Below are positions 1 through 54,639 of a stretch of DNA of 64,000 nucleotides, piece by piece. Source of the stretch: Lingula anatina. Taxonomy: Eukaryota; Animalia; Brachiopoda. The notes below the pieces were generated by a model. That model had not been told where the DNA came from. It saw only the letters and a list, made by a program, of their open reading frames with translations, and searched no databases. The DNA is taken from contig CM120640.1 of assembly GCA_051362555.1 (NCBI GenBank), forward strand, positions 49,640,788 to 49,704,787, in the 5' to 3' direction. Each line of letters opens with the position of its first letter. The stretch's first letter is position 1. A program made the position numbers and the translations under genes.

Positions 1-3000
1 TAGCATACTTCCTCCTAGGGGTGGCATGCCTTGTAGGGAGCTCATCCCACTGCCTCCATTGGTCTGCTGGACCCCAGACTTGTTCATCTTACTGCTGCTG
101 TTTTGTTGTTGTGAAATACTGCTGCTGGAGGCACTGTTATCTTTACTTGATTTTTCTTTGCTGGCATTACTGAAGTCACAATTAATATGTTAAATGACTT
201 GTTTAGAAAACAACAGGGAATACATAACATACATGTTCATCCAAATTACAATATGATCAAATAATTCACATAACTATACACATACACAAATGGTGTGATA
301 TTTTAATTTCAAGTCATATTGCCTCCACTGATAATGTATTATGATAATTACTACACATATATTTGACTTTCAGTAAATGTTAGTTATAAATATTTGAGTG
401 AGTACTTAAGCACATCAAAATTAGTTTAAATGAACACCTGCAACAGATCACTTAGTTCAACACAAAAGCAATGTGCAGACATAGTACATGGGTGTATATA
501 CTGTAAATATATATACTTGCACACTGTTACTAGTAACAAAATCACTGATAATAGAATCATATTAGGAACATCTAAGGAACAGTAAAACCAGTCAGTAAGG
601 TGTTTGATTTAAATTAATCTATATGAAATAGCTATGATGTTGCTAATTTCACAGCAGTACATGGATTGCACTCAAACTGCTGAGGTCTATTGAACTATTA
701 ACTTGCATGGTGATGTCCTGAGGATATAGTGAACTATGCCGGTAGATTTAAAATTGACTGCATTTATATACCTTTTTTGTCCATCAAGTAACTCCATGTT
801 TGAAACACTTACCTTTTCTGATAAATAAATTTAGGGAAATAGGGGATTGGACTATAGTGACAATTAATCCACTGTTATAAAATCCAAAAGGTTTGTGGAA
901 AAAATGTTTTATCTTAATACCAATAGTAACACTTTTTAAGCATTTATGCTCTCATCCTAAAACCAACAATTGAAAGAAAAGTAAATGGCACATATTAGAA
1001 TTCTTGAATGTTTAATAAAACAAATATGTTTTTATAAAGGCAGAAATTGATGAAGCACAAGAAATTGTAGATAAGATGAATCAAGAAAACCAGTAATAAC
1101 TTGACAATGTTGCATGACAAAACTTGCCAGGGACAAGGCACTGATAAAATGGGAATGCAAAACAAGGGAAGGGTTATCTATAGGATTTTTTAAGCAGACT
1201 CTACTTGCTTTGATATTTCACTCACTGACTAACATCTGGGTATGGGAAATACCCAGTCTAAATCATCTGTCACACGTTTGTTTTCTAATCACCAAGGATG
1301 AACTGTATTTCAAAAATGGCACACCACCACAAGTCCATGAGTGCAGTCCTATGAACACCAAATGGCTGTTAGTTGCCAGAAAGGGGGAAGCTTGGTGTTA
1401 GTCTGTGCTGGGACCAAAGGCTGCATAGTTAGAAATGAATTTAAAAACTGGGGAGACATCTACTGAATATCATATTTTGTCATTCTCAGATATCAAACCA
1501 GACAAAATCCACATGATAAAATTGATATCTAATCTGTTCTAAGGCAAAGGAAGCAATTATTTGACAAAAAAAGTTTTGATCCCATTTTCACTATCTTTCC
1601 TAAATGATACAGTCAGCTCCTCTTTTTATTCATTCAAATATACAATATTCAAACACAATTTTAGATAATTTTCTGCCATTTCTCACCATAACAAAACTTC
1701 ATGTATGATCTAAAATCTAGAAGTCCTAAAAAAACTAGTGCTGATTTAATAATAAGCAATCACAAAATCTTCTTCATTTTGATAAAAAAGTTGCCTCCTT
1801 TGTCTTTCAGATTACAAACTGTTTTCATTTTCAAGCATATCTTCTCATTTAACATGTTAATGGTTCTCTGTATCTTTAAAATACCCAGCAGATGGCACCT
1901 CATGTAAGGAAAAAATTGTACTTCTAGCTGCCTAGCAACAAGCATGCATGGGCAGTCTAACCCACACGGGTGGACTAACCTCCTGTCAGGGGATAATATG
2001 GGGATCTGGGAGGGTTTCCCGGAGCCCAGGGGTGAGACCTTTTTTGTTTTTCTGTAGGGAAGAGTGATTATATATTATATATCAGACCATGGATAAACAC
2101 TGCTGTCAACTCTTCAAAAAATAATAAAGAAAAAAATAAGCATAATACTTAAGGTCACATAAATATCACTGCTTTTTAATATGCATTTTCAGGTAATTTT
2201 ATATTTGAAATTCTATATCATGTGTGTTAGCCCCACAGTCTCACCTTCCATAAGATTTGTCAGACTTTGGCAATGGATCATCAAAAAAGGCATCATCATC
2301 ATGATCGCTGCCCAATGAACTGGTGCTGAGTTTATGTTCCTTTTTCTGTTCCTGTTGCTGCTGTGACCCAGTTTTGTTTGAAGGCTGATTGCTCCCATTA
2401 ACTAAATTATTACCCTGGTATAGAGGAAACAAAATAGAAGATAACTTTGCATTAATTTAATCAGTTCCTAACATATCTGCACAAATTAATCTATATTATA
2501 GCATAAAGATCATCCATACTTAGTTTGAAAACATGTGTACTTGTAGGATTTTAATCACTCCGTAGGATGGATTTATTAGATTAAGCCCTCAAAAAACTCC
2601 TATTGTCTGTATGTGTATCTGAGACTTATTACTCAAGCAAACATTTACGGCATATTGTATATTTTTAGTCCAAATCAATGGCAAACTTGTAGACAAAAAA
2701 TAAATCAACTTTATTACCAGATCCCAGTTAGGAAATTTAACATAGTACTATACAACAGTACCTTTTTAGCAGGCTGTGGTATTTTACTACCCACTGTGGT
2801 ATCTACAGTCCGCCTCGGTGAAGTTGGCACAAAGTCAGAAATATCATGGGAGACCACACTCTTGCATAATACAAACAGACGCTTGTACATGCTTAAGAAC
2901 TCATCAAAGTCTATAGCTAAAAATAATGAAAACGAATATTAACTTTATTCCAGGAGTGATTAATTGCACATTAAAAATTAAAAAAGATGATATGAATGGT

Positions 3001-6000
3001 AAAAATAACTTTTCTTTACTATATCATATACCTCATTGAAAAGTGCATGAACTGGTCCTAAAACATTCAGAACTGAACAAAATAGTATTCTGGGTAGGGA
3101 TATAAATCCTTGGCTTACCATTGCTGAAGTCTCTGTCTACTGCTTGGAATTCATCATTCACATATCTCTCCAGCATATTCCTGTAATAAATAAATAAATA
3201 AATAAATTTAATCTTACCATTATGGTAATGTTCATCCTAATGACATAATGTTTTCACAAAGTTTCGCAAGTCCCAAATGACAAATCCTAATGCATAATGC
3301 TATTTACAAAAATACCTTTGCATAAATAATATAACATACCTGTGAAAGTGTGGGAACACATCAGCAAATAGATTTCTTAATTCATCTTTGTCTATTGTGC
3401 CACTTCCATCCTTAAATTGTTAATTAAAAAAAGAACATTTCAATAATTCTACCAAATAACATTTTATCATTTATCTCTCTAGCACAAAAAAGAAAGACAA
3501 AACAAAGAGTACAATAAAAACTTCTTGTAATATGTATTCATCATATGTCTCCTCTCTACCTGAGGCCCTTCTAGCTGTTCTAGCAGTTGTCCTTCAACTG
3601 ATTTTGTAACTGCTAGAACAGCTTGGGTAAAAAGCTGCTTACGTACTAACTAAGATATATAGCTTGTGTCAATTTCTCTACTAAAAAAAAAAAAATTGGT
3701 TAAGATAAATATACTTACAAGGTCATACTTGTCAAATTTTTTGCGAGCTTCCTCTATTTGCTTTTTGGACAAATCCTAAAAAGTGAATAGTTTTTTCATC
3801 AATGTGTCCTCACAACATGCTGTTAACAAACCATTACGTGCTATGAATGTTTGCATCAATGATAGCTAGTATATATGCAGATAACGAATAAGTTAAGTAA
3901 AATTATTTTTAAATTTGTACAGATTTATAGCTGATGCTTCATTTTCGGTCACTATTACACACCATCGTATATGCCCAATAAGTTCCTCTGAATATAAATT
4001 ATGTGCATGTAACAAATACTGAAAATCCAAATTTTCACATCCCACCATACATCAACTCAAATTACCCCCTTCCCCCTGTGCAAATCAAACAATATTAGAT
4101 ATCCATCAATTTCAAATCATGTTGTGAAATACAAAATTAGTTGTGCAATATGTAACACAAAATCCGTGAAAAAGTGAAATTCTACCAAAGATTGAAATAT
4201 TCTGTTGCTGCATTTAAAGTAAAATATCAAACATTTCAGATTTTCATCCATTCTATCAAATGATATTTTTATACTCTCTCGACAAAATTTGACATGCACC
4301 ATTTTATTCACAAGATAAATGTAAACAAACAACATAAAATTATTCTTTCTTTAAAATTTGTAAAAATAGTAATATTTATAATAATAATCTCATATCTTAA
4401 ATCATCTGAACTGAAGAAACATGAAGGATGAGTTTAATGTTCAATCATATACCATCCTATCATGGGTAATACAGATATGCTCAATTGACAAACCTGCTCT
4501 TTAACTACCATGCACTAATGATAATCTTATATAAGCTATTTTTCATACTGATGAAATACTGAAACCAGAAGAACATGCATGTGGGTGATAGTACTACCTT
4601 TGGGACCTTTATGTAGTCTTGAGAGTCATCCTGTGTTGGGAAGAAAAGAGATAAAAATAGAAAGTATATGTAGTTAATCATTAAAAAGCAGAACCTAAAT
4701 CATAAGAAAGGAAAACATTTGAAAATATTTTTTCCGCCTTTCAATTGACTGGTTGAAGGTAGTGTTCAAAACAAATAAGAAAATGAAATAAAAGGCTATG
4801 CCAAGAAAAACAAAACTATATTGCACTCAATAAATTACAAAAGATTTCATTGGATAAAGATTTTCAGTGAAAGTTAAAGAAAACAAATAAAGATGAGAAA
4901 GCAAGATATAGGAACATAACGTGACTGTATCTACAGCTGCCATTTGTAATCACTTATATCATTACAAGTTGTCACATGTAACCCCTCTCTACCTCTCTAC
5001 CTATCACTCTATAAAAAATTTCATTTCTGTGTATTTCTTGAATAAAATACAAAGCACAATACACTCACAAAGCTTTACATTTGAAAGACTTTTGACTTCT
5101 CATAGATCTATATGCAAAATACACTTTCTCATAAAAAAACAAAAACAAATGTAAGCACATAAGCAACTACATAATGAAATAATCTACACTATATTTGGAA
5201 GCATGCAAAACATTGACTCAAGCTCTGGTATATCGAAGCACAGGAATAAATTCTACAGCTATGGCTTTTAGTTCTGTAGACATAACATCAATATGCAGAA
5301 TTCACTGAAATAAGCAGGTTTACTGCCTAATAATATATAGAGAATCTTCACCCTCCCCAACTCGAAAATGAATGACAGTTCGCTGCCTTTACAACAATTC
5401 AAACCACAAAGTCTTTTAACATACTTTTAAGATGAACATTTATTAGTATATTTGGTATTCAAAACCACTTCAAAATGAGTTAAAAGAACAAGCTTTAGGC
5501 AATTATCTGAGTAGTGCCACTACAGTCACAACACTGTTACCACATCTGGATAGCCATTTTTATGTGTCTCAGATTTTCATCCATACTAAATGACTTTTAA
5601 TCAAACAAACCTGAAAGTTCTGCAATTGACGAAATAATATTTCAGTGCTCATATAAAAAATTGATTAAGTAAGATATCGTTGAGTTTTCAGGCATATATG
5701 ACACTTTTACTGAATAATGTATTTCAGTACAATAAAACATGAAATCCTATTTCTAACTCTGTCTGACCTGACTGATAAAATGAAACAAATAAAATATTTT
5801 TCTTTTTAAAGTCTCACCTCATGACTTGACTTTGGTCTTCCTTGTTTTTCTTCTCCTTGTCTCTTAAGTACTTCTGACAACAAAGGTGTTCGTAGGGAGC
5901 TGTCTGATTCCAGTATATTCAACTCTTTGGCTATATTATCACGCCCCTCATATTTTTCTGCCTAGAAAATAAAATCCACAAATATTAATTGGAAAGGGGA

Positions 6001-7329
6001 AATCCATATGGTATTCAAAATAAATTCAGAAACTTTAAAAATCAGTTTTATGATAAGTTGGATTTATTTGACTCTGGATGTCATGATCAATAATACATGT
6101 TATTTTATATTCTAATTAGACTTACAAATCCAGTCTCTGGGTCAAACACTGCAATTGAAAAATCAAGACCAAAAAACTCCAAGAACTCTCTAACAAGACT
6201 GGTTGCCAAACGACCTGGAAGGACAATTCAGAAATTAATTGTCTAAAAAATCATAAAATGTGCTTTTTTGGTCTCATAAAAAGTTTTTGCTTAGCAACTT
6301 AACGAAATCAAACACATCTCAAAATAAATAATTAGAAATCAAACATTTAGGTTATTTGTTAATTTGTGTTATTACATTACATTACATTACATTACATTAC
6401 ATGTTATTTGAAACTTTGTTTCATCTGGAAGAATCATTTTCACAGTTAAAACACACATTTCATAACCAACAGAAATATGCATCATTATACCTTCTTTGCT
6501 GTTCAGGAACTTCTTTAAATCCTGATTAATAAAGGGAGTTTTGTTCTGAAACATCAATTGTAAAATCTCTTTATCTTTTAATAAGAAACTTTGCAGAGTC
6601 CATTCTTGATTCTTTGCATATATGGTGGCTGCATGCCATTTTCACAATTTGATGGTTTATACAGCTGAATCTAACAGCACAATGTCCATGCACATTCTTA
6701 ACAACATGCCTTGTCTAAACAGAGATGAACACAAATGCCTTGGCTTCACTTTTTGCTGTTGATAAGCAACAATTTTAAAATCCTTAAAATATTACAAAAA
6801 TTTATAAAAAATATTAAATAAGTATCTATCTACATAAAACATAATAAAAACAATATAATTTGCTTGACCTACCTGAACAGTGTCTTGTTCTTCAAGAGCA
6901 ACAAAGACACTGGCCCTTAGTTGTGCCTATAGAAAGGAGACATACAGTAGCAGTACATTCGAATTTCATCGGGTGTTATTACAGACAGAAGATAAAAGCT
7001 ACTTATTAAAATTTTAAGAACTGCTGACATTTCCCATGCATATCTACATTCGTTCAGGGAATACCAAGCTTTTGAAGGAGCAGGCAAGCAATGTCTGTGT
7101 GTAAGAGTGAAGGAAAGACTGTTTCTTCGACTTCGTGTCATTGAATGAAAGTTGTTCAACAAATCTTTCCCTTTTCACCCCAACTTGGGGAAATTAAAAA
7201 TTCTTTTATCTATCCTGTGTAAGATTAATAGGGGTCGCTAATTCTTACCCTTATTTTTCCCAATGTTCCATTGGCTTCAAGAGTCTGGGCCACTAAATCA
7301 CGGAGTTCAGTGTCTTCGTCTGCAGACAT
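1..7329 (-). CDS. CEP43: Centrosomal protein 43 / FGFR1 oncogene partner (FOP, TONNEAU1-like), LisH domain plus EF-hand pair; 3' end lies outside the window
   Basis: Spliced exons (minus strand, GT-AG, phases consistent): 7249-7329, 6873-6926, 6491-6545, 6126-6214, 5818-5961, 4598-4630, 3719-3775, 3340-3410, 3119-3180, 2762-2916, 2245-2414, 1980-2051 (less certain), 1-169. Translation starts MSADEDTELRDLVAQTLEANGTLGKIRAQLRASVFVALEEQD...GRLATSLVREFLEFFGLDFSIAVFDPETG, matching the FOP N-terminal TOF/LisH signature (EDTELRDL..QTLE..G.L..I.A.LRA.VF.ALEEQ). SSLQGMPPL near position 30 resembles the FOP/TON1 C-terminal 'SSL.G.P.L' motif. Confidence 0.9.
6371..6401. repeat. (ATTAC)n microsatellite
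   Basis: Six ATTAC units in a CEP43 intron. Confidence 0.9.
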
Positions 7330-7630
7330 TTTGAAAACCGGAAGTAACAGATGTAAACAATAGACATGCGCACTAAGGCGTTAATTGGTTTCAAATTAAT
7401 ATTAACAAATATTTTCTGTTTACATGTTTACGTCACTTTCAATATAATTTATGATTTGCAGAAAATATGCCTGGCTCAGTTTTGCTGAAATTTCAAATAG
7501 TGTTGTTTTGTCTACGCAAAATCTGACCAATAGGTAAACGGGGCATTTCAGTACTGGCCAATCAGATTATCAGATTTTGGCCCTTTAAATTTGTACGCAC
7601 TTTTTGAAAGTTGTACACACGCCGAAGGTA
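7330..7630. promoter_or_regulatory. Bidirectional promoter shared by CEP43 and importin-alpha
   Basis: ETS-like CCGGAAGT at ~7338, reverse CCAAT (ATTGG) at ~7384, CCAAT at 7527 and 7558 (31 bp apart), CHR-like TTTAAA at 7584 and TTTGAA at 7603, then a + strand donor AAG|GTAAGG at ~7628 that would end a non-coding first exon. Confidence 0.6.
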
Positions 7631-7946
7631 AGGCAAGGTATTTGTGCTTATCTGTGAAATTTAAAAAATGTCATTTAAGAGAAATGATTTGACAACACAA
7701 AAGCTCTGTTTAATTAAACATGTGTAGCAATAGTTATTAGATGTCACATTTCTAATAGGATATGAGGTAGTTTAAAACGGTGATGTTTCTTTCATTTTTT
7801 TCCAGTTTACTGACTGCAGTGAAGAAGCTCATACGTGAACAGCAAAGAAACTGTCAGATATATCAGTTTATCTTTTCTTTCACGTATTGTATCTCTTGTG
7901 ATCAAATACCCAAAAGACTTTTATAGATTCTCCATTAGTGCCAAAT

Positions 7947-10900
7947 ATGCCGTCTCAAGAGAACACTGCCCGCCTCAAAGCCTACAAGAACAAGGGAAGA
8001 GATGTGGATGTAAGTTCACCTAAGTTTTAAAACACAGCATATGTCGTCACTGAAGTTTATGCCACATTGGTTCTTGTAAAGTAAAGGATATACATTTGTA
8101 TTAGCTTGGCTCAAATACACCTTTTCAGTTTTGATACCACTTTCTATGTACAGGCACTGCATGGATATGCTACCATTTATAAATGGCTAAGGTTAATTGA
8201 GTTTATATTAGTCATTAAGCCAGCATCTTGAAAGCAAAATTAGAAGCCAGTAATTTATCTTGAGAGTTTTGTTTTCTTTGATTAACCTTTGTGAACCTTT
8301 AACCTCACAATTCTTTTATTTCATGTTTTCCAGGATTTGAGAAGAAGAAGAAATGAAGTGTCTGTTGAATTGAGGAAAAATAAGAAAGATGATCAGCTGC
8401 TAAAAAGACGAAATGTTGCCATTACTGATGAACCAACTAGTCCTCTACAAGAACAAAAACAAGTGAGGCACTTCTCCACTTTTGTATGAAAGAGGGATTT
8501 GAATGTTAAATTAGGGTGGAGAAGAAAGATATCTACATTTTTACTCATTTTGCCGAGTTGTAATTATCATTATTAATATTATTATTATTATTTTTTTTTC
8601 AAATTTAACATTTGATTTTTGGTAATTCCAGAATGTTGGTCTGAGCCTGCAGGAGATAGTGGACAGCATTCATGGCACTGATCCACAGAAGCAGATGATT
8701 GCAACACAAGCTGCCCGTAAAATGTTATCTCGGGAAAGAAATCCACCCATTGATAGCATCATACAATCAGGGGTCATCCCTAGACTAGTTGAATTTCTTC
8801 GTTACAATGACAGGTACTGTCAGGTTTTGGAAAAGCATTTAATTACTATATGAAATAATTAAACACTGAAATGTTTAGACTCCAGGTGCGTGTTTTTTTA
8901 TATTTTATGATGTAAATGCCTTGAATTATGATAGTTTAAGGTACACTCCATTGGTTTGAAAATCTCCAACATGCTTATTTTTGCCATTCGCAGCAGCTTA
9001 TAAAACCTCACAACTTAAAAATGATTTTTGCTGAAGGGTACCTGATGTTGATAATCTGTTAGTGTTTATAGGAAAATGGTCGCAGTTAAAACTTTTATCA
9101 AAAGTAAAGAATTACGAAAATGTTCCATAAAGACTGCAGCTAAAATGGCCTCTCAAAGGATTATGGAACAGCTTTCATTAAAGATTTCTTTTTGCTGGTT
9201 TATTTCAGGCCTGAACTTCAGTTTGAGGCAGCTTGGGCCCTGACCAATGTGGCGTCTGGAACATCCACTCAGACCAAAGCTGTGGTTAATGCCAATGCAG
9301 TGGTACCATTCATAGCACTGCTTACCTCCCCTCATCACAATGTCAGTGAACAAGCTGTTTGGGCAGTTGGAAACATTGCTGGTATGAATTATTGTGACAT
9401 GTGACCTAATATTTTACAAGAAATTCCAAGCAAAATTGTAGCAAGTATGTGTCACTGATGTGTGCGTGCGTGTGTGTGTGTGTGTACCTCTTTAGCAGGT
9501 ATATCAGAAACGTGCAGTTGCTGAGGATTTTGTCCATACTTTTTATCTTCACTGTAGACAGTTTTGCCTCATCATTGATATATGCCTTGAATAGAAATAA
9601 AAAAAATTAGTTACAAGTGTGCCAGGTTGAATGCCCCCCCCTCCCCATTAGCTCTTATTTTTCCATTTGTTAATTGACATGGATTAATGGTGCTGTAAAA
9701 TTGTTGACTTGTGTGAACCAATTTGCACCTTTCTACTACATGTAGGGACTGAAACATTCAACCTCACCATTGCAGTGACCAATTTTCTTGGGAAAACTAA
9801 TTTTAGTACTTGTACTCATTTCTAGGTGATGGTCCTGAAATGCGAGACTATGTGATAAAATGTGGTGCTGTTGAGCCTCTGCTGAGTTTGGTGAAACCAC
9901 AGATTGAGGTAAGAGGAGCAAAAAGGCTATATTTATTATGGATGCCATTATTTCTTTAGAAAGGTTTTATTAGTTCTTGCAACTTGTACATATCTGATTG
10001 GGAAGTTTAAAAGTAAAGGGCTGGTATTGATATCGAAGTAAAGTTTATTGGTAAGTAAATGAAAATGAATTATTTTTATATATACCTTGTCATTTTTAGA
10101 CCTCCTTCCTAAGGAATGTAACTTGGACAATCTCGAACATGTGCCGCAATAAGAACCCTCCTCCCCCCTTTGCTACAGTGAAGCAATGCCTGCCCACACT
10201 GAGTCAACTACTTCTGCACACTGACAAAGAAGTTCTGTCTGATGCTTGCTGGGCACTGTCCTATCTGACAGATGGTACTAATGACAAGATACAGGAGGTT
10301 CTTAACTCAGGTAGTTAACTGATCATTGATACAAGGATGCACATCCTTGATCAGGTTACAGTGCATCTCCTTACACAAGTTTTATTTTTATTTGTCTGTT
10401 TATTATTCTTATTCTTATTAATATTATTGTTATTTGCTGTTTTTTATGAGTGTGACAAATTAAAATGAAGGAACATGTTTTCATTTTCTTTCAAAACAGG
10501 TGTTGTTCCCAGGCTTGTTGAGCTGCTAGCTTCTCCAGAACCATCTATAGTAACCCCAGCACTGCGGGCAGTGGGCAATATTGTTACAGGGGATGATGGT
10601 CAAACTCAAGTAAGTGGAAATGAATACAGAGGCCCTAATCACCTATGAACTCTAGTAGGATGGTTCTGAATTCACTTGCTGTAAAGTGCACATTTTATGC
10701 TTTTTTTTTTTTTTTTTGCTTTCAAAACTTAAGATTTTATTCACTTGCAGATTACTTACAAAAAGCATTATTTATAAAAGAAAACTTTTTGGGCATATTG
10801 ACATTTAAACATAATGGATTTATGGCTGCATGTTACTTTCTAGGCAGTTATAGATGCTGGTGCTGTCCCAGTGTTTAACTTGCTGCTCACCCACTCCAAG

Positions 10901-12008
10901 TCCAGCATACAGAAAGAAGCTGCTTGGACGGTTTCAAATATAACTGCAGGGAACACTCAACAGATTCAGGCAGTACTTGATGCTGGTGTGATACCCAATG
11001 TTGTTAACCTATTGGTCAAGGTGTGTAGAATGCATGCAATGTTTGTGGTTTCTAGCTTTTTGAGAAATGAAATAACATTTATAATAGAACATGCTTTCAT
11101 AGCATTAAATACAAAATAATTATTTACCAACCATTTAGCTTCTGTCTTTATTTTAAGGGAGACTTCAAAACTCAGAAAGAGGCTGTCTGGGCAGTGACTA
11201 ACCTGACCTCTGGTGGAACTGTTGAGCAAATTGTTCACTTGGTTCAGTGTGGTGTTTTACGACCACTTTGTAACCTGCTCACAGCAAAGGAAGCTAAAGT
11301 TATCTTGGTCATTCTGGACGCACTGCAGAATATTCTCAATGTAAGTATCCTAATCTCAAATCTCTTACAGTAAGCTAAATAAAATGTGTGTTGATTATTA
11401 TAATGGATAACTGTGAAATCTGTATATCAAAAAATGAAAAAAAAAAAAAAAGAAGAAATGAGTGTGTAGTTACATTGCCAAGACGGTAACATGGACATGC
11501 CACCCTTCCTCCTCATGATCTTTCAAAATGTTGTAAATTCAATTTGTAGGCTGCAGACAAACTTGGTCAGTCTGAAGCAGTCTGTATCATGATAGAAGAA
11601 GTAGAGGGTATGGAGAAGATAGAAAACTTGCAGCAACATGAGAATGAACAGGTCTACAAAGCAGCCTATGGTATCATTGAAAAGTACTTTGGTGGAGATG
11701 TGAGTACTTCCTTTTGCTGAAGGCATTTCCGAACACTTTCAATAATTTTCCTCTTATGTTTGATTTTTAAACTTAATCCCTTGGAAGTCGGTGCTTTTTT
11801 TGCATATTCAGTCACTGTGTATTAAAAGTAGCCTTATGGTAAGCTTTGCTTTGTAAAATTTGACTGATTTTTTCACTATATTTGCCATGTTTGTTTTCAC
11901 CAGGGTGATGATGAGGATGAAAGCCTGGCACCAACATGCAGTGAAAATAGCAACAATTTTGAGTTCCAACCTGCAACCCAAGTTCCAGCAGGGGGCTTCA
12001 GCTTTTAA
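7947..12008 (+). CDS. KPNA2: Importin subunit alpha (KPNA2 / alpha-2 subfamily), about 521 aa
   Basis: 11 coding exons: 7947-8009, 8334-8462, 8632-8813, 9209-9381, 9826-9908, 10100-10310, 10500-10609, 10844-11020, 11158-11340, 11550-11699, 11904-12008 (1566 nt, in frame). IBB domain (RLKAYKNKG...[27 protein letters not shown]...TSPLQE), ARM repeats ([42 protein letters not shown]), C-terminus GGFSF*. The SPLQE motif and C-terminus favour the KPNA2/KPNA7 clade. Confidence 0.95.
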
Positions 12009-14366: not shown

Positions 14367-17300
14367 TTAAGTCTTTTGTTTCCTTTTTTTACTTTGTTTA
14401 CTGCCTCTGGTTTTTTCTTTTTTCTGAGCAACTGGTAAACCCTTCCCTCCTCCCTTCACTTGCTGTTTTTTGAATACTTCACTTTTGTCCATTGGTTCAA
14501 TCACAGTGCCTAGTTTTGTCAGAACTTTGGGACGAATCATCTTTCGGTATGCAGTCTCTGGGTTCCATGTTTTGCCAATTGGTGCACGAATAGCACTCTC
14601 AAATTGCTTAATATTACTGAACGGAAAAGGCAGATCATTCACCTGAAAATAAAAAGTTTAAAATTTAACGTAATTTAACTAAAAGGAATGTTTCTGCAAT
14701 GCATTTTGTAATTCTTTGTTACAAGGATGTTGTGTCACCTTTCTGTTTCCCCTGCTCATAAAATAGCTCAGTTGACATCTACTGCAGATTGACTTGCCTG
14801 CTCATAAAATAGCTCAGTTGACATTTATAGCAGATGACTTGCCTACAATACAGTTGATCTTTCCTAGTGTTTTGCAATAAAGGCCAAAGCACACATCAAT
14901 GAAGAGGAAGTTGACTTAGAATTACCTGATGTTTAGCTATGCTGTTGTCCTTGGTCTCAGAGATGATGACATTTTGTTTGTCTTTATCCTTTCTTGGTGG
15001 CAAAGGAGGAGCTTTGATCAAGAACCTAATGAACAAATTGTAATAATGTTAAACCTCTTCCATCAGATTTGTCTCGAGTGCCCAACAGTAAATTGTTAAG
15101 AAATCTTATTTTAATGTAGGTTAAGTAATGGTGTAAATGCAGATTTCAGAAATATTTTGCTTGTTTAAAGTTCTGTTATTTTTTGAGAATCTTGTGGGGT
15201 TCTTAAACAGACATGGATTGACAAAATCATTTTATGGTTAACTATAGGGAGTAAATAATTATAATTCAAACGGACACTGTGGAGTCTATGCCATCCCTAG
15301 AATCAACTGTCCACTTAATTCTGATACAGGAAGAAGTGGTTTTAAACAAACAAATTGCCTCCTGCTATCAGTTAGTCTTGACACAATGTAGGTCCGTTTT
15401 TGGACAAAGTGATAAATAAATATATGCTTTTACTGGGAAACATAAGCCAACACAGGTAAAGAGACAGACTGAGAGAGAGAAAGGAAGTGTTTAATATAGT
15501 AATACCTCTTCTTTTTCTTCCTAGACACTTTTAACCCAGTTCCTCCCCAGTCTCCCCAACCTGGCAATGTCAGGTCAATATCCTTGGGTTTGTCACGTTC
15601 TTCAAGGCGAGTCTTCTCCATGTTGAACTCCTCTACAACATCATCACTAGCAAAGGCCTGGGCAATTGTCATCCTTTGGGTTTCAACTGGATCTTCTTCA
15701 TCTTCCTCATTACCTACTATATTGGGAGTCTGTGAGGGGCATACAGATTTACTTCCTACGGTGACAATCTTTTTTGGGTCTACCTGAATATCTCCTTCTG
15801 CTGAATTAGACTGTTCATTGTCTTTTACCTTGTGCTTTTTGCTCTCTTTCTTTAAAGTCTTTAGATTATCATCATCAGACATATTTCTTTCAAAGTCTTC
15901 ATATTTTCGCTTTCTTTTCAAAACTTGAGTTATGAGCTCATCTCCACTATCTTCAACTTCATAGTCCAGGTCACTGTTTTCACCTCCATCTTTTTCTTCT
16001 TCTTCTTCCTCATTATCTTCACTATCACTACCAGACGTATCATCTTTTACTGGTCTCTGTTTCTCCTGTGTTCTCTTTTTGGCATTCTTTTCTGGTTTCT
16101 TCACAGATGGTTCATTTGTGTTAGATTTCTTCTCCTTTGGTCTTTTACTAGAATTCAACAATTGCTCCTGTTTTTTCCTTTCTAGAACATCAAATAATTC
16201 ATCAAGTTTTTCATTTTCACTCTCATCATCCTCTTCTTCGCATTCAACATCATCATCAATGTCTTCTTCCTTTTTTCCAGCTTCAAGTTCCTTTGTGGGT
16301 TGCTGGATTTCTTTTTCATCATTGCTATCATCTGAATCTTTGCCATTTTTATCTTGGATCAAAACTTGTGCTTCCAAATTTACCACTGCATCAGGCTTCT
16401 TATAGACAGAATGATGTTTTGGCAACATGGTCATCCAAGGATTTGCACTAGATTTATCATTCATTGCTCTTGTGTTGCCATTCATAGGTTCTTCAGTGTC
16501 GCTGCCATCACTTTCACTAGATATAGCTTGTTTGTTGGTTAATTCTTTATTTTTCTGCAACATGTCTTGAACTGCCTGGCGACTCTACATACAAAACAGT
16601 AACAGTTTTAAATTTGACTGCCTCAGAAATTATTAAAGAGAACAAATGATAAATAAACACCAAAAATAGAGAAAGCATGGAAATATACCATGAGAATGAA
16701 GTAAATACTTTGGAAAACTGAAGGTTTTTAGCAAACATCAAAAATTTTAATTTCCTGTTTCATTTTCTGAACAACTTTACATGTCTGCACAAGACCTTGT
16801 GGTAATTAAGATGACAACTTATTGTTCAACCACTTACATGATCATTGTGCTTCCCATACAGTACCACATTCTTCATGTACTTGCTGCCTCCTTTGTGCTT
16901 CAAACTCATTCTTTCCTAAAATCACATGTAGCACAGATCTTCAAAATATGATAAAATAAGAAAAATCTAATAGAATAATGAAAAAAGGGAACAGAAAACA
17001 AAATTACATCTTTAATATCATTATATGTCTACTGAGGAAAGATAATCCTTTTTGCTACAAACAAATTCATTACACTTGAAGTGCATTGGGCAATATTCAA
17101 CAGTAGAGCAATATCAATACTTTTCTAATGTACAAACACTTCTCACTAACCTGCATTCTCTGTTTGTCTAGCATTTGGAGTTTTTCTAGGTAAGCTTCTG
17201 GGTTAGTCTTTTGCAGTTCCTCCAATGCTTTCTTTTCCTCTTTCATTTTTTCTTTCTTTTTTATACGATGGTATCTAATAGTTAACAAAAGATTATCAAT

Positions 17301-20300
17301 TAGCAATTTCATGGCATATGAAACTGCAGTAAACTAACAGAAATGCATACTGCAGTCCTGTGAGTATAAACTTGCATTATCAATCAATGGTAAAAGCAAA
17401 TAATAAAAACAATAATTAAACAGCTTTAATATAATGTCCCTGTTATTTAGGTAAATAATCATATACCTTACATCTTACTTACATGATAAAATCAAAAATG
17501 CAAATGACACATCACATACCTCTTACTCTTTATCTTGTTTTGACGTCTTGACTTGGCTTCTTTGTAAGACAGCAGAGCTCTATATTTTTGTAGCTCTGCT
17601 CTACGAGTTTTAGCCTGTAGATAGACATAATATTAATCATCAGTTAACTGAAATCTTTGTAATCTTGTTTAGGAAAATCACCATAAACACTCAAATATAA
17701 GACTGAAAGTATTCTTTAACTATACATTTTTTCTTCAGACTACATGCCTGTTCTAACCAAGATCTATACTCAGCCTTCCATGACATCATTATTCTCAATC
17801 TCAAATGAAGAATGAATAGAACACTTTGTAACCCTGTCGTCGGGCTGAAAAGCAACCAATGTTTGCTGTAACCAACCTCTTCTAGACTCATTGCCTTTAG
17901 TGCTTTTTCTTCAGCAGCAGTCAAAGCTTTCTCTTGCATCATTACATTCTGACTTCCATGCAACAAGGTGGCTATCTCTTTCTCAAGGGGAGTCCTTGGC
18001 TAAAACATAATGGTAGGTATTGCCTTTTTTAAAAGATCCACTTAGTGACAATCAAGCAAAATAAATGATCTGCCGATTAATTCTGAATCTAAAACATCTT
18101 CCACAGACAGTTAGGCCACACTTTTTTATTTTTATGGATGACATCCTCTGGGTACCCCAAAATCGGTACAAGAGGGCGAAAAAAAAAAAAAACGGTCCAA
18201 AAAAAAAATTACTGCTTAAGTAAAGGAATGCTGTCAGTACACAGCTGGAAACACAAATTTTACCACAGAAACACGTATCAAACTAACAATATGTCTTTAT
18301 CCATGCTCTCAAAATATTAAAGCATTGTGAATACTTCGTAGAAATGTAAAAAAAAGTCATGAATAGATATACTTTTTATTACAAAATCTATTAAGGTTAT
18401 TTATTGCATTTTGTTGGTATAGCAATCAATAAAACAAATATCAAACAAACGTTACAGTGTGTCTTTATTCGTATTCTCAGAATATTAAAGCATTTTGAAC
18501 ACTTCACAGAAATGTTTAAAAAAATGATGCAAAGATATGCTTAATACTACCAAATCTATTAAAGGTCATTTCGGACGATGCCATTTTGTCTACTTCGACT
18601 CACACGGCCAAACTGTCAGGTGGCCTGTCCGACCTTCAGCCCACCAAATACCTCGACGCCCTTGTCGACCCTTTTTTCGCTACAGAAAACCTGGTAGCCT
18701 ATGTGCTGCTTTGTACAGAATGTCACTGAAATTTTTCGGGCGATAATCGCTGGCGGCCGCCAGCCTTTCGCACAATTGTAAAAAGGTGATATCTCCATGT
18801 CCAATATCAATGGCATACCAATCCAAAACGACGGCACCCGTTCTCTTTATGACTTTAATTGTCATGTAATTTGAAAGTTATCCTAGAGATGAATTTGACG
18901 GCAAAGCGGCCACATTTCCACATGGCGATAATACGCATGCGCAGAAAGCTCATTTCCTGGCAAATTCAATAACGACGTTTGCGCCAACCGACTTCGTTGG
19001 GGGCTGGGGGGGGGGGGGATTTTTTTTTTTTTTCGGAGAACGGGCGAAAATCGGTGCGCGCGCAGGATGTCATCCATAAAATTAAAAAAGTGTGGCCTTA
19101 GTAAAAATAATGTACCTCCAAAAAATTAAAGATACATAGCATACCACCTTGCCCAATAGTCTTTAAAGATCACACGTGGAAAAAAGTGCACTTTACAAGC
19201 TTCTAAATTTACAAATGGATGTTTCTGTTACATTCTTTCTATCAGATGTCAAGTAAATACAAGTAACCATGATCGCATTGGGGGGGGGGGGGGGATAAAT
19301 TGAGAAGTGAGCAGCATATTGCAACATAAATTAGGCAAACACACACCAACACACACCTGAAATCTTTTGACAAACTGATCTGTAGTGTGCAAACGTAGAT
19401 TAGGCTGCTGGAGAGGAAACTTGAGTTGATCAGCTCTTCTATTCTTCTCTACCACAGGGTCCCATTTTGCTACTTCTTTAGAAGCATCTTCATATGCAAC
19501 TGTCCTTTGAATCTAAAAAGTACATAAAAATAATACCAAATACCAACATTAAGAGATACCTGTGTCAACTATAAACATGCATACATTAAAACATATTTTC
19601 TTGTTGAATTTATAATAAATATATTAATAAGATAATAAGTAAACAAATGAACTCAGATGCTAAATTCTTCCCTTACCCTTTCCTGTTCAGGTTTTGGTAG
19701 TGGTTGTTGAAGAACCTTGTTTCGCTTATTAACAGTGTTCAGTTGCTTCTTCAGATCCCCATGTTTGGTTGTGTTTCTAAGTGATCCAACCAGATCATGC
19801 AGTTTCACCTTTTCTGAATCTTTTCAGAGACAAAAAGAAAAAGAAAAAGTGATGATGTAGGTTAAGCTGAGCTAAAACAATAAGGGATTTAATATTTCTT
19901 TGTATGTAAATTTTCAACACATTGTATTCAACCATTTTACAAGAAACTGCTTTTTTTGTTTCAAATAGATTGTTACAGATTTAAAAAAAGTTTAAAATGA
20001 AGCTATACCTTTACTAGTGCCAATGCTGAACTCAGACACTGTGAGAGAAGCTTCTGATCTCTGTAACACCTTGCTACAATAGAAAATGAAAATCTGTTTA
20101 ATGAAAATATAACATCAGTTTTTGGCTATTCATTAAATGGCATTTCAATCAGTTAAAATATCTCATTTGCCTATTAATTATACAAGCTCAAATATTAATG
20201 AATATGTATAATACGTTATGATTAAGAGCAAATATCCTGATTCAAAACATCTAGGTATGAGCCGATTACAGATAAATTAAAAAGACAACACAGCCTCTTT

Positions 20301-34478: not shown

Positions 34479-37400
34479 AGTGGTCAAGTACAGAATTAGA
34501 CACAGTGGCATTTCCTTGCCATGCAAATAATGAAATTTTTTTATGTCAGCGGGCACTGGTTTTCTATGGTGGACTTATGTTGAAAAGAAGAATTCCATGG
34601 ATATGAAAACTGCCAATGAAATTCCATTCCTGCAGATAGAAATTGACAGTGAAAATGCATTTTTGGCGTATTCCATAATTGCAACAATCCTTACGGTGAG
34701 AGTCATATATTAAAAAGAAATGATTATAACTATTACAACTTTTATGTGCTGAACATTTAAGATGTATTAGTTTAACAACAAGGTCACAAAAATAAATTGA
34801 ATGTAAAGATGTTTTATGTACACATTTGTTTTATTTTGAAATTATTTGCTTGAGTTTTGCAGTGAATGTTGAGTATTTTAAGTTTCTATTCCAGGTAATT
34901 TTGTTATTGGTAATTTTGGTCTTGAGGAAGCGTATAGCACTGGCGGTGGCTCTCTTCAATGAGGCAGGAAAATGCATTGTAGCTGTGCCCATGATTCTGG
35001 TGCAACCAGTGTGGACTTTCATTTGCTTGATTTTGTTTTACGTGTACTGGGTGGTAGTGCTGGCTTATATCTCCACTGCTGGTAAGATGATATACAATAT
35101 ATATCAGCATTGTTGTGGGATGTGGTAGAATGATAGTGTATAAGAGTGACACATGAGTGACATGAAGATGTGGAAGGATCACACATAGTTGTTGCAATTA
35201 TTCTATTAATTTTTTATAAATATCTGCAGATAAAATTAGCTACAATCATCAATAGATCAATGAAAATGATATTAATGCACATGCTATCAAAATATTTAAA
35301 AAAACAAAGAAAATGTGATGATATACTCTTTTTGTTGCATTGTTATCCAGTTCCCTTTTCTCTGTCCAGGCACTGCTGTGTTGGATAAAGACACAGGTTT
35401 TGTGAACTATGAGGAGAGCCAGCCAGTAAGGTACATGTGGTGGTACCACCTGGTGGGCCTGATATGGACCAGTGAGTTCATTATTGCCTGTCAACAGCTG
35501 GTGGTGGCTGGGGCTGTGGCTAAGTGGTACTTCACCAGGTAAGGGAGGGGATTCAGGGGAATTCCACAAGTACTGCTGAATTAAGGAAATGATAGTCACA
35601 ACATGTATGTTATGTGTATTAGACTATTTCTCGAAGTACTATAGGTGAACATTTTCTTCTTTTTTTTAGAATTGAAGAATTATTTCCAATTTTATAACTA
35701 TCAATTGATATATTTCTCAACACCTCTCAGAAATCCAGTTTTCTATCATTTGTCAGAATCAAGGTCATGTTATGTTAACTTTAGAACACTGTTTCACCTG
35801 CAATGTGTGTTGTTACAGAGACAAGAAGACCCTGAAGAACCCCTTGGGTGATGCTGTCTGTATGCTTATTCTCCATCATATGGGATCTGTGGCATTTGGG
35901 GCCTTCATCATCACACTTGTCAAGCTGCCTAGGTGGATTCTCATGTATCTACACGAAAAGTAGGTGAATTGGTGTAACTTGGTACTTCAAAAGGCGCAAG
36001 TGATGCCAATTGAATACCATTGACAGTTCTGTCTTTAGATGTTACCAAATATTTTTGAGAAAATTAAAACATATCTTGGACTGAAATGTGCCATTTCATC
36101 ACTATTTATTTGTTTCAGGCTCAATGGCAGCCAGAACAAGTGTGCTCAGTACTGTCTGAAATGCTGTATCTGTTGTTTGTGGTGTCTAGAGAAGTGCCTG
36201 AAGTTTCTCAATCAGAATGCTTACACTATTGTCGGTAAGGAAATTGAAGCATGGTTAGAGTTTGAACAAGTAATTAATCTCAATAAAGTTATTTGAGTTA
36301 TTTGTTAGGAAACTTCAAGGTTTTTGTTTGCATCTGAAAGGAAGGCAAAATCTGGGCTATTTTGCCTCTTTCGAGCTATTAGTCTCAAATTTCTTATAAT
36401 CACTCTATTTTCCTAGCCATAAGGGGCACCAACTTCTGCTCCTCTGCCAGGAAGGCTTTCACCACTATAGTGTCCAATGTCTTGCGTGTGGCAGCTATTA
36501 ACAGTGTTGGTGACTTCATCCTGTTCCTGGGCAAGGTGGCAGTAATGACTGGCACAGGGGCTATAGGAGTACTTATGTTCAAGGTAGTGTGACCATCTGC
36601 TGCAGGATAGATATTGCTATTTTTTAGAAAACTTCTGCGGGTAGTTTATTGAGGATATATGTTTCAATGATATTTTGCTTTCGTATAAGATTGTTTATTA
36701 AAAATTTGTTCAGCATTTTATTGAATAGTAGATGTAAATATGTATTAATCACAGTATTTGATTTTTATAGTGATGTTTGATGTCAAATGTTAAATGAGAA
36801 ATGTGTGTTTGCTTATTATGCTGTGCTTGTAGAACCTGTTGTAACTTCAGAAGCAATGGAATATTTTTCTCAATTGTGTGAATTGTTTCAAATTAATATG
36901 CTGTAAAGAATTTTTATATCAATACATGTTATAAGTTAATGGTTTAAACATAACTTTTTTGTGGTTACCAAAAAAGATGAGAAAAATATGTCAAGGCTTC
37001 CATGTTTGTTGTACGATGAATTGTAGATGCCTGTTAATTAATTGCACAAGATATTGTAGTTTTTACCAAAATAAAGCGTTTACATCAGAATGTGCAATTT
37101 CAAAAGATGTGCTGATAGTTTGACTTCTTGCAGGTGTTCCTCTTCCTGTGTGATTTCTGCAATTCAACCACAAATCCAAAATGAAATTGCTCTCTGTGTG
37201 TTTCTTATTATCCATCTTTTTTTTTTTTTTTGTATCTTATTTCTTCCGTGTTTATTTCTTGTAGGGTGACCCTCTGTTAAATTACTTCTTCGTTCCTGTG
37301 ATAGTAGTCTGCTTGTTCGCATACTTTATTGCACATTCTTTATTAAGTATGTATGAGGTGAGTATACATGACTTTTCAGACAGGCATGCTTATGCATTCT

Positions 37401-43021: not shown

Positions 43022-45932
43022 AAACTAGAGGATCAGAGAGGCGATACCGCCTCCGAATATTGTACCACCAGCTGGAGCAAGCGCATTCGTATAGACCCCC
43101 ACATACACAAAATAAGGGACATAGCCACCAGTTTTGTGCTTGACAAGCTGTAAAAATGCAATCAACAAGAATTTTTAAACTATTGCAAAAAATATATATG
43201 GTACAATCAAATTTAAGTTCTTCGTAAGGTAGGTCAAGGGTCAATTTCAAGGTCACAGTAAATTGCCAGTATATGACTTCCTATTCAAGTTCAAGAGTAA
43301 CTATGGACCTATCTCTGTCAAGTTTGAAGTTAAAAGGGAAAGAAATTAGCAGAGTTCAGTTCATGATAAAAAGTAGGTCAAAGGTCAATTTCAAGGTCAC
43401 ATTTAGATTGCCAGTATATGACTTTCTATTCAAGTTCAATAGTAACTATGGACCTATCTCTGCCAGTTTTGGAGATAAAAGGGAAGCAAAATTTGCAAAG
43501 TTCAGTTTATGGTGAAAAGTAGGACAAAGGTCAATTTTAATGTAACATTTATAATGCTAGTATATGACTTCCTATTCAAGTTCAATAGTAACTACGGACC
43601 TATCTCAGCCAGTTTTGGAGATAAAAGGAAAGCAAAATTTGCAAAATTCAGTTTATGGTGTAAAGTAGGTCAAAGGTCAATTTTAAGGTCACATTTAGAT
43701 TGCCAGTATATGACTTCCTTTTCAAGTTCAATAGTAACTATGGACCTATCTCTGCCAGTTTTGGAGATAAAAGGGAAGCAAAATTTGCAAAGTTCAGTTT
43801 ATGGTGAAAAGTAGGTCAAAGGTCAATTTTGAGGTCACATTTAGATTGCCAGTATACGACTTCCTATTCAAGTTCAATAGTAACTACGGACCTATCTCAG
43901 CCAGTTTTGGAGATAAAAGGAAAGCAAAATTTGCAAAATTCAGTTCATGGTGTAAAGTAGGTCAAAGGTCAATTTTAAGGTCACATTTAGATTGCCAGTA
44001 TATGACTTCCTATTCAAGTTCAATAGTAACTATGGACCTATCTCTGCCAGTTTTGGAGATAAAAGGGAAGAAAAATTTGCAAAGTTCAGTTCATGGTGAA
44101 AAGTAGGTCAAAGGTCAATTTCAAGGTCACATTTAGATTGCCAGTATATGACTTCCTATTCAAGTTCAATAGTAACTATGGACCTATCTCTGCCAGTTTT
44201 GGAGATAAAAGGGAAGCAAAATTTGCAAAGTTCAGTTTATGGTGAAAAGTAGGTCAAAGGTCAATTTTAAGGTCACATTTAGATTGCCAGTATATGACTT
44301 CCTATTCAAGTTCAATAGTCACTATGGACCTATCTCTGCCAGAGATAAAAGGGAAGCAAAATTTGCAAAATTCAGTTCATGGTGTAAAGTAGGTTAAAGG
44401 TCAATTTTAAGGTCACATTTAGATTGCCAGTATATGACTTCCTATTCAAGTTCAATAGTAACTATGGACCTATCTCTGCCAGTTTTGGAGATAAAAGGGA
44501 AGCAAATTTTGCAAAGTTCAGTTTATGGTGAAAAGTAGGTCAAAGGTCAATTTTAAGGTCACATTTAGATTGCCAGTATATGACTTCCTATTCAAGTTCA
44601 ATAGTAACTATGGACCTATCTCTGCCAGAGATAAAAGGGAAGAAAAATTTGCAAAATTCAGTTCATGGTGAAAAGTAGGTCAAAGGTCACTTTCAAGGTC
44701 ATAGTAAGATTGCCAGTATATGACTTCCTATTCAACTTCAATAGTAACTATGGACCTATCTCTGCCAGTTTTGGAGATAAAAGGGAAGAAAAATTTGCAA
44801 AGTTCAGTTCATGGTGAAAAGTAGGTCAAAGGTCACTTTCAAGGTCATAGTAAGATTGCCAGTATATGACTTCCTATTCAAGTTCAATAGTAACTATGGA
44901 CCTATCTCTGCCAGTTTTGGAGATATAAGGGACTAAATGTTATAATTTTGGAGTTACCATAATGTGCCTTAAATTTCGTACAGAAAAAATTAATTAAAAT
45001 AAAAAAAATGTCATTTTGGTCAAAATTCTTGAAATAGGAGGTGCTCTGAAGTTTCAGAAGTTCAAATTTGATGAAATAATGTCATTTTTGAACACAAGTT
45101 GTCTGCTTTGCCAAGCCTTATGTTTTATTTTTCCAGAGTTCAAAATTTATTATCCATTACCGTACTGCACATTTTGCTTTTACCACCAATATGCACTTTT
45201 TGATACAGCGTAACTCGAAAACCGTATGGAATACAAAAAAACCGAGACCACCTCCAGTGTTGGGCTTTACATGCTCTACAAAATGCAAAAAAGAATGGGT
45301 CTCTAGCATTAACGGTTCCCGAATTAGAGACAGTTTTCAGTTTCGGTATCTTATGGCCGCTACTCCCGTGAAAATGCACCGATTGACCCCAAATTCATGG
45401 AGATGAAAGATGACCTGAAGGGTAACACCTTCCAATAATATTATTGGTTAAGTCTGTGTGGTGTCTGAATAACAGGGCAAAAAAAATTTTTTTCGTAAAA
45501 AATTTAATTTTTTTGAAAATTTTGGCCCATTTGACCTTGAAGTAAAGGTCAAAGGTCAAATCCAAAGGTATATTTGAAATCTACACATATGACTTTTGGA
45601 AAGCCGTCTATAGAAATTTTTCCCATAACTCCTTCCGTAGGGTAGATAATTAGCATTTAATTTTGCCATTTTTAGACAAGGGTGCATTGCAATGAGTGCC
45701 ACACCCAGACCCCAATACCGACAAAGCCCAAATTTTACGTGGAACGAGTTGAGATTATAGGTGACCTAAATCCATGAGATGGGTACGGGGGCCCTTACCG
45801 TCTAGGAGGAGAAGCGGTAACGGTAGCCGTCCGGCGGAGCCAACGGAGCCGGCGGAGCCGGCGGAGCCGGCGGAACGATCCGGACGGGACCGAAACCATG
45901 TGTACCGCCAGCGCTAACGCTGGTGGTACAAT
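43022..45932 (+). mobile_element. Helentron-associated non-autonomous element (HINE / 'pearl'-like) carrying a satellite array
   Basis: Starts AAACTAGAG in an A/T site; central 146-bp tandem array; GC-rich microsatellite (CCGGCGGAG)x~5 at 45831-45873; 3' hairpin TGTACCGCCAGCG-CTAA-CGCTGGTGGTACA at 45901-45930, followed by ATAA. Confidence 0.7.
43225..44930 (+). repeat. Tandem array of ~12 units of 146 bp (two units are 140 bp)
   Basis: Unit starts at about 43225, 43371, 43517, 43663, 43809, 43955, 44101, 44247, 44387, 44533, 44673, 44819; consensus AAGTAGGTCAAAGGTCAATTTTAAGGTCACATTTAGATTGCCAGTATATGACTTCCTATTCAAGTTCAATAGTAACTATGGACCTATCTCTGCCAGTTTTGGAGATAAAAGGGAAGCAAAATTTGCAAAGTTCAGTTTATGGTGAA. 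Confidence 0.97.
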
Positions 45933-54005: not shown

Positions 54006-54639
54006 GGAAACTCAGTGGCTGCATATAATTTACTGCCAGTAGGTCGAAAATGTACTAGAACAACAACTACATGTACTTACTCGTACACCAAGGATCTTCA
54101 AAGTACTCGTACAGTACTAGTACATGTATAGATCCAAATTCTGAAATGGTTGCAGAGGTGCAATTTGTTTTATGAAATGTCAAGTACATCAAGTGCAGAC
54201 CAGAAACTGCCAATAAGAGTGCTAATGCCTGCAACTTCTGCAGTTCTACAGTTGATTTTATACTTCTTTGTATCATATTTATCATATATCAGTAAATTAT
54301 TATCATATTTTAACAACAGGCAAATCATCTCGATCATTTCATTTAAATACTCTGGGAAGCGCAACATTTTGTTAGCTCGCATCACCATAACAGCGACGAT
54401 ATATACTATATGAAATGCTAAGATATATATTTGACCTTTTAGTTGTGCAAGTACATTACCAGACAGTACATGTACAGTGTGTACATGTACACTGATAACG
54501 GAAAAAGAAATTACTCTGCTTCTCCCCTCGCCTTGAATTGCTCAACATTAAGTTTCATCTAGACAATCATGGCAGTCAAAAGTTTTTGTCCAGTTTTTCA
54601 TTGTGTCCACTGATATCATACTATTAGGATTGTAGTGCA

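Follow-up and report, generated by a model that had tools for sequence, protein, structure and literature searches.

An EF-hand pair spliced in frame into CEP43 of the brachiopod Lingula anatina

The human protein CEP43 (also FOP or FGFR1OP; structure 2d68, PF09398) comprises a TOF-LisH N-terminus and an acidic disordered tail. Its N-terminal region mediates centrosome targeting and the binding of CEP350, and its last 27 residues bind CEP19 (PMC5469608). The TOF-LisH targeting module recurs in plant TONNEAU1 (TON1), FOR20/FOPNL, OFD1 and trypanosome TOF-LisH proteins, and in trypanosome RP2 a domain is fused behind the module (PMC6070722 and PMC9484695). Here we analyze the CEP43 gene of Lingula anatina in a 64,000-nucleotide stretch of DNA (the window; contig CM120640.1, forward-strand positions 49,640,788 to 49,704,787). 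The encoded protein has the same TOF-LisH N-terminus and the same acidic disordered tail, with common motifs, as human CEP43. It differs in ~95 extra residues that contain a pair of EF-hands; human and other amniote CEP43 records join the linker straight to what is left of the equivalent of exon 10 (E10).

An earlier note, made from the DNA sequence, had proposed that four short exons encoding this pair lie in phase within CEP43. We confirm that the EF exons are spliced in frame into CEP43, with RNA reads behind each joint between the LisH-region exon and the tail, those of the EF exons included. The gene starts at 7329 on the minus strand and runs past the left end of the window, and our corrected model of 12 exons is a single open frame in which the four EF exons cover residues 153-267. 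The exons, with three alternative ones, are as follows.

E1, 7249..7329, minus: start codon and first half of the TOF motif, residues 1-27; RNA joint to E2.
E2, 6873..6926, minus: TOF motif, residues 28-45; RNA joints.
E3, 6491..6545, minus: start of the FOP_dimer domain, residues 46-64; RNA joints and Pfam.
E4, 6126..6214, minus: LisH motif, residues 64-93; Pfam FOP_dimer at 35.4 bits for the exon alone, RNA joints.
E5, 5818..5961, minus: end of FOP_dimer and linker, residues 94-141; Pfam FOP_dimer at 30.3 bits, joints to E6 and directly to E7.
Alternative 9-nucleotide micro-exon in the linker, 5611..5619, minus: three codons, flanked by AG/GT.
E6, alternative 33-nucleotide linker exon, 4598..4630, minus: residues 142-152; included and skipped forms both read.
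E7, 3719..3775, minus: helix leading into the EF1 loop, with positions 1-2 of that loop, residues 153-171; RNA joints and model.
E8, 3340..3410, minus: remaining EF1 loop, exiting helix and linker, residues 172-195; Pfam EF-hand_5 at E 2.2e-4 for the exon alone, joints.
E9, 3119..3180, minus: helix leading into the EF2 loop, with positions 1-7 of that loop, residues 195-216; loose-ended reads, joint to E10.
E10, 2762..2916, minus: end of the EF2 loop, long exiting helix (to residue 237) and start of the disordered tail, residues 216-267; RNA joints and model.
E11, 2245..2414, minus: low-complexity tail with an acidic-aromatic motif that is also present in vertebrate CEP43; RNA joints and alignment.
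E11b, alternative 72-nucleotide tail exon, 1980..2051, minus: joint 1980>169 in 3/4 runs; present in P0001.
E12, 1..169, minus: continues beyond the window; RNA joints and P0001.

All four EF exons have AG/GT ends, and their stop-free translation is the peptide originally proposed. No strict EF pattern is found in any unspliced frame of the window, because introns split both EF loops. The gene model agrees with P0001, the database protein of 540 residues that is the window's own product, at 403/404 residues, and the sole mismatch is a variant present in the RNA reads. The 3' end is taken from P0001, whose last 136 residues are encoded beyond the window; in that part an acidic C-terminal end similar to the CEP19-binding end aligns. 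In a tree of the N-terminus, whose rows do not include FOR20 or OFD1, the Lingula protein falls in the animal CEP43 group. A database search with residues 1-250 gave 537 matches, and the counts given for it below are on the best 120. Those with names are all CEP43/FGFR1OP and the remainder are unnamed models.

RNA reads were taken from eight of nine raw-read runs with the same species label, drawn from three studies and mapped as two sets of four; a joint was listed when covered by 3 reads from 2 starts. The joints from E1 through E5 are all covered. E5(5818)>E6(4630) is read 13 times in the first set and 21 in the second, E6>E7(3775) 21 and 22 times, and E7>E8(3410) 8 and 20 times. A direct E5>E7 joint is supported by 5 reads in each set. 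The linker micro-exon appears in 5 reads from a single run as additional letters at the E5 joints, with E6 or E7 following it. Further downstream, E9>E10(2916) has 10 reads in 3/4 runs and E10>E11(2414) has 31 reads in 4/4 runs, in both cases from the first set only. The E8>E9 joint adjoins a repeat at 3178-3215 that was skipped in mapping the first set. In 4/4 runs of the second set 22 loose-ended reads off E8 carry the letters of the start of E9, which lay outside the mapped stretch.

The EF exons might have been a nested separate gene, cryptic exons or an artefact of gene prediction, and no single read covers the whole distance from LisH to tail. But 10 reads directly join E5 to E7, all later joints are read, and the same architecture is found in records from many phyla, so that we give this explanation practically no credence. 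The nested gene in particular is ruled out by the RNA joints linking a LisH-region exon to the EF exons, and the chain as read is equally at odds with exons that are always skipped. No joint bypassing the EF exons is present among the listed joints of the eight runs, at low depth. Since omission of E7-E10 together would preserve the reading frame and read depth is low, a minor isoform that skips them is possible.

The Pfam profiles place both domains in P0001, as had been anticipated. FOP_dimer scores 101 bits over residues 47-127, above its cut-off, and EF-hand_7 scores 36.8 bits (cut-off 30) with E 5e-9 over residues 160-227; the EF match is therefore not due to chance. The AlphaFold prediction of P0001, built with 68 alignment rows, has helices at 156-169, 179-189, 195-209 and 219-237 with two short strands, and a predicted local confidence (pLDDT) of 80-96 over residues 151-230. 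A disordered linker lies before the lobe and a disordered tail behind it. The global score (predicted template modelling, pTM) is 0.35, so the packing between the CEP43 domains is not defined by the model. The LisH part superimposes on human FOP 2d68 with Z 13.2 and a root-mean-square deviation (rmsd) of 1.2, and matches it in sequence with E 1.7e-24. The EF lobe superimposes on the N-lobes of calmodulin and centrin with Z 11-12 and rmsd 1.5-1.9. Two helix-loop-helix units paired by short strands, which define an EF-hand pair, are present in the model and in the Pfam match, and the EF region is thus predicted to be a calmodulin-lobe-like four-helix pair on a variable linker.

The likeness to these proteins has limits. 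The Lingula lobe shares with the N-lobes of calmodulin and centrin the four-helix EF pair, the two short strands and a canonical first loop. In contrast to them it has two hands rather than being a free four-hand protein, it is tethered within a scaffold of 540 residues, its linker is longer, its second loop has no Gly6, and sequence identity is about a third or less. It had been suggested that the fusion is a Rosetta-stone link to centrin, and one could imagine a captured half-centrin replacing the free centrin bound by plant TON1. AtCEN1 binds Tonneau1 (PMC8622359 and PMC6070722), and the best PDB match to the EF region by sequence is indeed a centrin, at 43.8 bits. However, calmodulin follows at 39-42 bits, within 2-4 bits of that score, and in structure calmodulin reaches Z 11.4-12.4 against 11.2 for centrin. 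The lobe is 18-26% identical to chains of centrin but 27-36% identical to those of calmodulin, the loop starts are 40 residues apart with a linker 4 residues longer than in either protein, and nothing indicates that EF-bearing CEP43 dispenses with centrin. Centrin and calmodulin match equally and weakly and the module has a family signature of its own; the link to centrin is unsupported, and we consider a captured half-centrin improbable.

We have examined the two loops across 119 relatives. Loop 1 was scored as canonical if it had D1, D/N3, D/N/S5, G6, I8 and E12, following the EF-hand rule in PMC8622359. The first loop had been described as fully canonical, and this is so in Lingula CEP43 and in 111/119 relatives, which range from annelids to frogs; loop 2 is not canonical. 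EF2 without an insert retains ligands 1, 3, 5 and 12 in 101/119. As loop 1 is canonical and loop 2 never has Gly6, we would expect one good Ca2+ site at EF1, with EF2 a weak or structural hand. Many near-invariant residues lie outside the loops (68 rows).

In 11/119 records, all from molluscs, the EF2 loop contains an insert of 8-10 residues at the place of the E9/E10 joint. A conserved insert is found in gastropod and chiton records (P0022, P0023, P0026, P0028, P0055, P0082, P0083, P0086, P0097, P0106, P0109, P0239 and P0241). Records P0239 and P0101 have identical flanks, one with and one without the insert, which suggests that it is likely to be an alternative micro-exon that breaks EF2. 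We found no convincing counterpart in the corresponding Lingula intron (2917-3118), and the form that is read there is without the insert.

We consider that the EF lobe probably acts as a Ca2+-tuned protein-binding lobe with one good site, and place the probability of this at about 0.6. The two-hand lobe, with its predicted fold, follows the LisH dimer domain and precedes the disordered tail of an otherwise ordinary CEP43; its presumed site is the distal centriole or the basal body. Here EF1 would bind Ca2+ (or Mg2+), with EF2 as its weak or structural partner. The near-invariant residues outside the loops may form a docking site for a partner, which we propose because they are so many. By analogy with the N-terminal CEP350 and C-terminal CEP19 contacts of the human protein, the lobe would sit on the dimer, between these contacts at the distal centriole, where local Ca2+ could modulate the recruitment of proteins to the CEP350-CEP43-CEP19 hub. 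Human FOP co-precipitates with PPP2R3C, an EF-hand protein (PMC11014585).

A structural EF-hand domain would explain some of the same observations. This would be closed, perhaps with constitutively bound Mg2+ or Ca2+, and would act as a Ca2+-independent spacer or docking surface. EF2 is non-canonical throughout the 119 relatives, the fold persists with broken loops in several lineages, and the many invariant residues outside the loops could serve such a role. Calmodulin lobes in the Mg2+-bound and in the Ca2+-free form are among the best matches by structure, but the state of a model says little. Against a purely structural domain, all the EF1 ligands and Gly6 are retained in 111/119 relatives across the span from annelids to frogs, and P0271, P0330 and P0367, three proteins of much greater divergence, also retain EF1 ligands 1, 3, 5, 6 and 12. 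We regard the structural domain as the main alternative, if a rather unlikely one.

A number of points nonetheless weigh against a Ca2+-tuned lobe. Position 6 of EF2 is Gly in 0/119 relatives (Asn in 62, Ser in 52, Gln in 4 and Cys in 1), and position 4 is hydrophobic in 119/119. Worn loops with persisting helices, which fit a structural role, are found in several unnamed records and in the lungfish Protopterus, Aplochiton, Gouania, Argonauta and Strigamia. Conservation of the lobe counts in favour, with 44/85 positions at least 90% conserved versus 20/81 in FOP_dimer (68 rows), but the rows had been selected on their score over residues 1-250, a choice that favours EF conservation and inflates the figure. 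Lastly, the absence of the lobe from amniotes (below) is drawn from protein records, with no bird or monotreme among the best 120 of the 1767 matches on which it is based.

The earlier note had ascribed a built-in EF module to this lineage. The EF pair is not peculiar to it, as many bilaterian phyla and non-amniote vertebrates carry it. An EF Pfam accession is precomputed for 116 of the best 120 of the 537 matches, vertebrates included, and all 120 score >147 bits on a lobe profile that, being made from the same set, is circular. Named carriers include annelids, nemerteans, molluscs, echinoderms, hemichordates and amphioxus among the invertebrates; Callorhinchus, sharks, sawfish, Polyodon, sturgeons, Amia, Erpetoichthys, Anguilla and Latimeria among the fish; and Ambystoma, Xenopus laevis and other frogs among the amphibians. 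The CEP43 proteins of Xenopus laevis, Latimeria, Callorhinchus, Branchiostoma, Owenia, Haliotis and Strongylocentrotus have the same architecture as that of Lingula, with a mean lobe identity of 71% and no substantial difference.

A second search used the EF-free N-terminus of axolotl CEP43, and its best 120 of 1767 matches are rich in primates. The lobe is present in 4/4 salamander-type records and absent from the 116/116 others, where the best lobe score is -3 bits. These comprise 104 named records (marsupials, placentals, turtles, Anolis and Crocodylus) and 12 unnamed. On alignment, 11 amniote sequences have one common gap of ~95 residues, running from the end of the E5 equivalent to within the E10 equivalent, such that amniote CEP43 retains the 3' part of the latter. 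The CEP43 of human and of the other mammals and reptiles examined is without the EF pair, in agreement with what had been stated for human CEP43, and the simplest reading of these protein records is a single, likely loss of the lobe on the amniote stem. The suggestion of an ancestral state lost in vertebrates is thus half right. The state is the older one, but vertebrates as a whole have not lost the lobe. It is retained in cartilaginous fish (sharks and chimaera), in paddlefish, sturgeons, bowfin, bichir-group fish, eels and coelacanth, and in the amphibians (salamanders and frogs); for the lineage leading to humans, the loss is placed on the amniote stem. Because amniotes lack it, the lobe is accessory to CEP43.

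Among the best 150 representatives at 50% identity, our own thresholds assign both parts to 49, the N-terminus without the lobe to 93 and the lobe without the N-terminus to 8. Thirty of these were looked up by taxon. In these protein records the lobe is absent from Actinia, Clytia, Hydra, Sanderia, Paramuricea, Sycon, Petromyzon (3/3 isoforms) and Austrofundulus, and from single records of Patella and Lamellibrachia; it is present in Bugula and Pyxicephalus. Absences in single records may be skipped isoforms or gaps in gene models. Five unnamed fish-like CEP43 records (P0257, P0260, P0265, P0329 and P0339) have only the last EF helix, equivalent to E10, and could be intermediate to the amniote state.

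The age of the lobe can be approached through the three divergent proteins, which are unnamed and combine FOP_dimer with the same EF lobe. Identity to Lingula in the lobe is 41/69 for P0271, 37/68 for P0330 and 34/69 for P0367, and is lower in the N-terminus at 51/117, 39/118 and 34/118, respectively. In the N-terminus tree, which has 128 columns and an unsettled bootstrap, P0271 branches as the sister group of all the named animals, Sycon among them (97/85, 96/85), and P0330 and P0367 lie among protist-like metagenome sequences on long branches. Approximately unbiased (AU) tests on 38 rows did not reject the placement of the divergent proteins with bilaterians (p 0.146, 0.091 and 0.341; together 0.154; control 0.293). 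TON1-like and protist-like metagenome loci differ from Lingula CEP43 in having no EF lobe, with an exception in 1/64 that is itself animal-like; no protist-like locus with the lobe was found in three forward frames of the 64, where introns or short contigs could hide it.

Taken together the comparisons suggest an origin before animals, with losses in cnidarians and a sponge. A more extended proposal is that CEP43 had the EF pair as a Ca2+ sensor before animals arose, and that through it Ca2+ directly controls the CEP350-CEP43-CEP19/PP2A hub of the distal centriole. The pair would have been kept in most aquatic bilaterians, with the mollusc loop-2 micro-exon as a switch, and lost repeatedly in cnidarians, a sponge, lamprey, some teleosts and amniotes. 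We consider this scheme doubtful and offer it tentatively. If it were true, human cells would show only a stripped version of the CEP43 scaffold.

EF-bearing CEP43 represents neither a novel protein family nor a novel fold. CEP43 records already carry precomputed Pfam EF accessions, and several UniRef entries are named 'EF-hand domain-containing protein'. In an Atlas cluster of 103 members EF-hand_7 is present in 46%, and the Atlas FOP clusters are all of animals. In a full-text literature search we found no published description of the CEP43 EF lobe, where family alignments or supplements of earlier papers could mention the domain. The available text of PMC6070722 contains no mention of 'EF-hand' or 'calcium', and those of PMC9484695 and PMC7693466 none of 'EF hand' and 'EF-hand', respectively; the sole 'EF hand' in the accessible part of PMC11014585 refers to PPP2R3C. 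EF-bearing CEP43 is apparently ordinary among non-amniote bilaterians, tagged in databases and undiscussed in print.

The CEP43 literature that we cite rests on work in human cells. Human CEP43 is missing a domain that ranks with the best-conserved parts of the protein in frogs, sharks and marine invertebrates. Care is required in carrying results on frog or fish CEP43 over to humans. The lobe is present in Xenopus, in which multiciliated cells are routinely studied, and a putative direct Ca2+ input at the distal centriole is testable there. The gene also offers a clean example of an entire domain that was probably removed, on the amniote stem, from a scaffold that is itself essential.

Head to head with CEP43 is a gene on the plus strand at 7329-7950 and 11071-11373 with a Pfam Arm repeat, which from its N-terminal sequence we take to be importin-alpha-like. 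Its first joint, at 7625, is ~300 bases from the CEP43 start codon, which suggests that the two genes share a promoter. Elsewhere in the window Pfam identifies Utp14 exons at 15430-17999 on the minus strand, and an exon of a choline transporter-like gene (Choline_transpo) at 34796-35128 on the plus strand. At 53208-54011 on the minus strand there is an acidic open frame of 267 residues with no Pfam match, probably a large exon of a disordered region. A tandem array at 43229-44932 consists of 11.8 copies of a 146-base unit with 92% matches.

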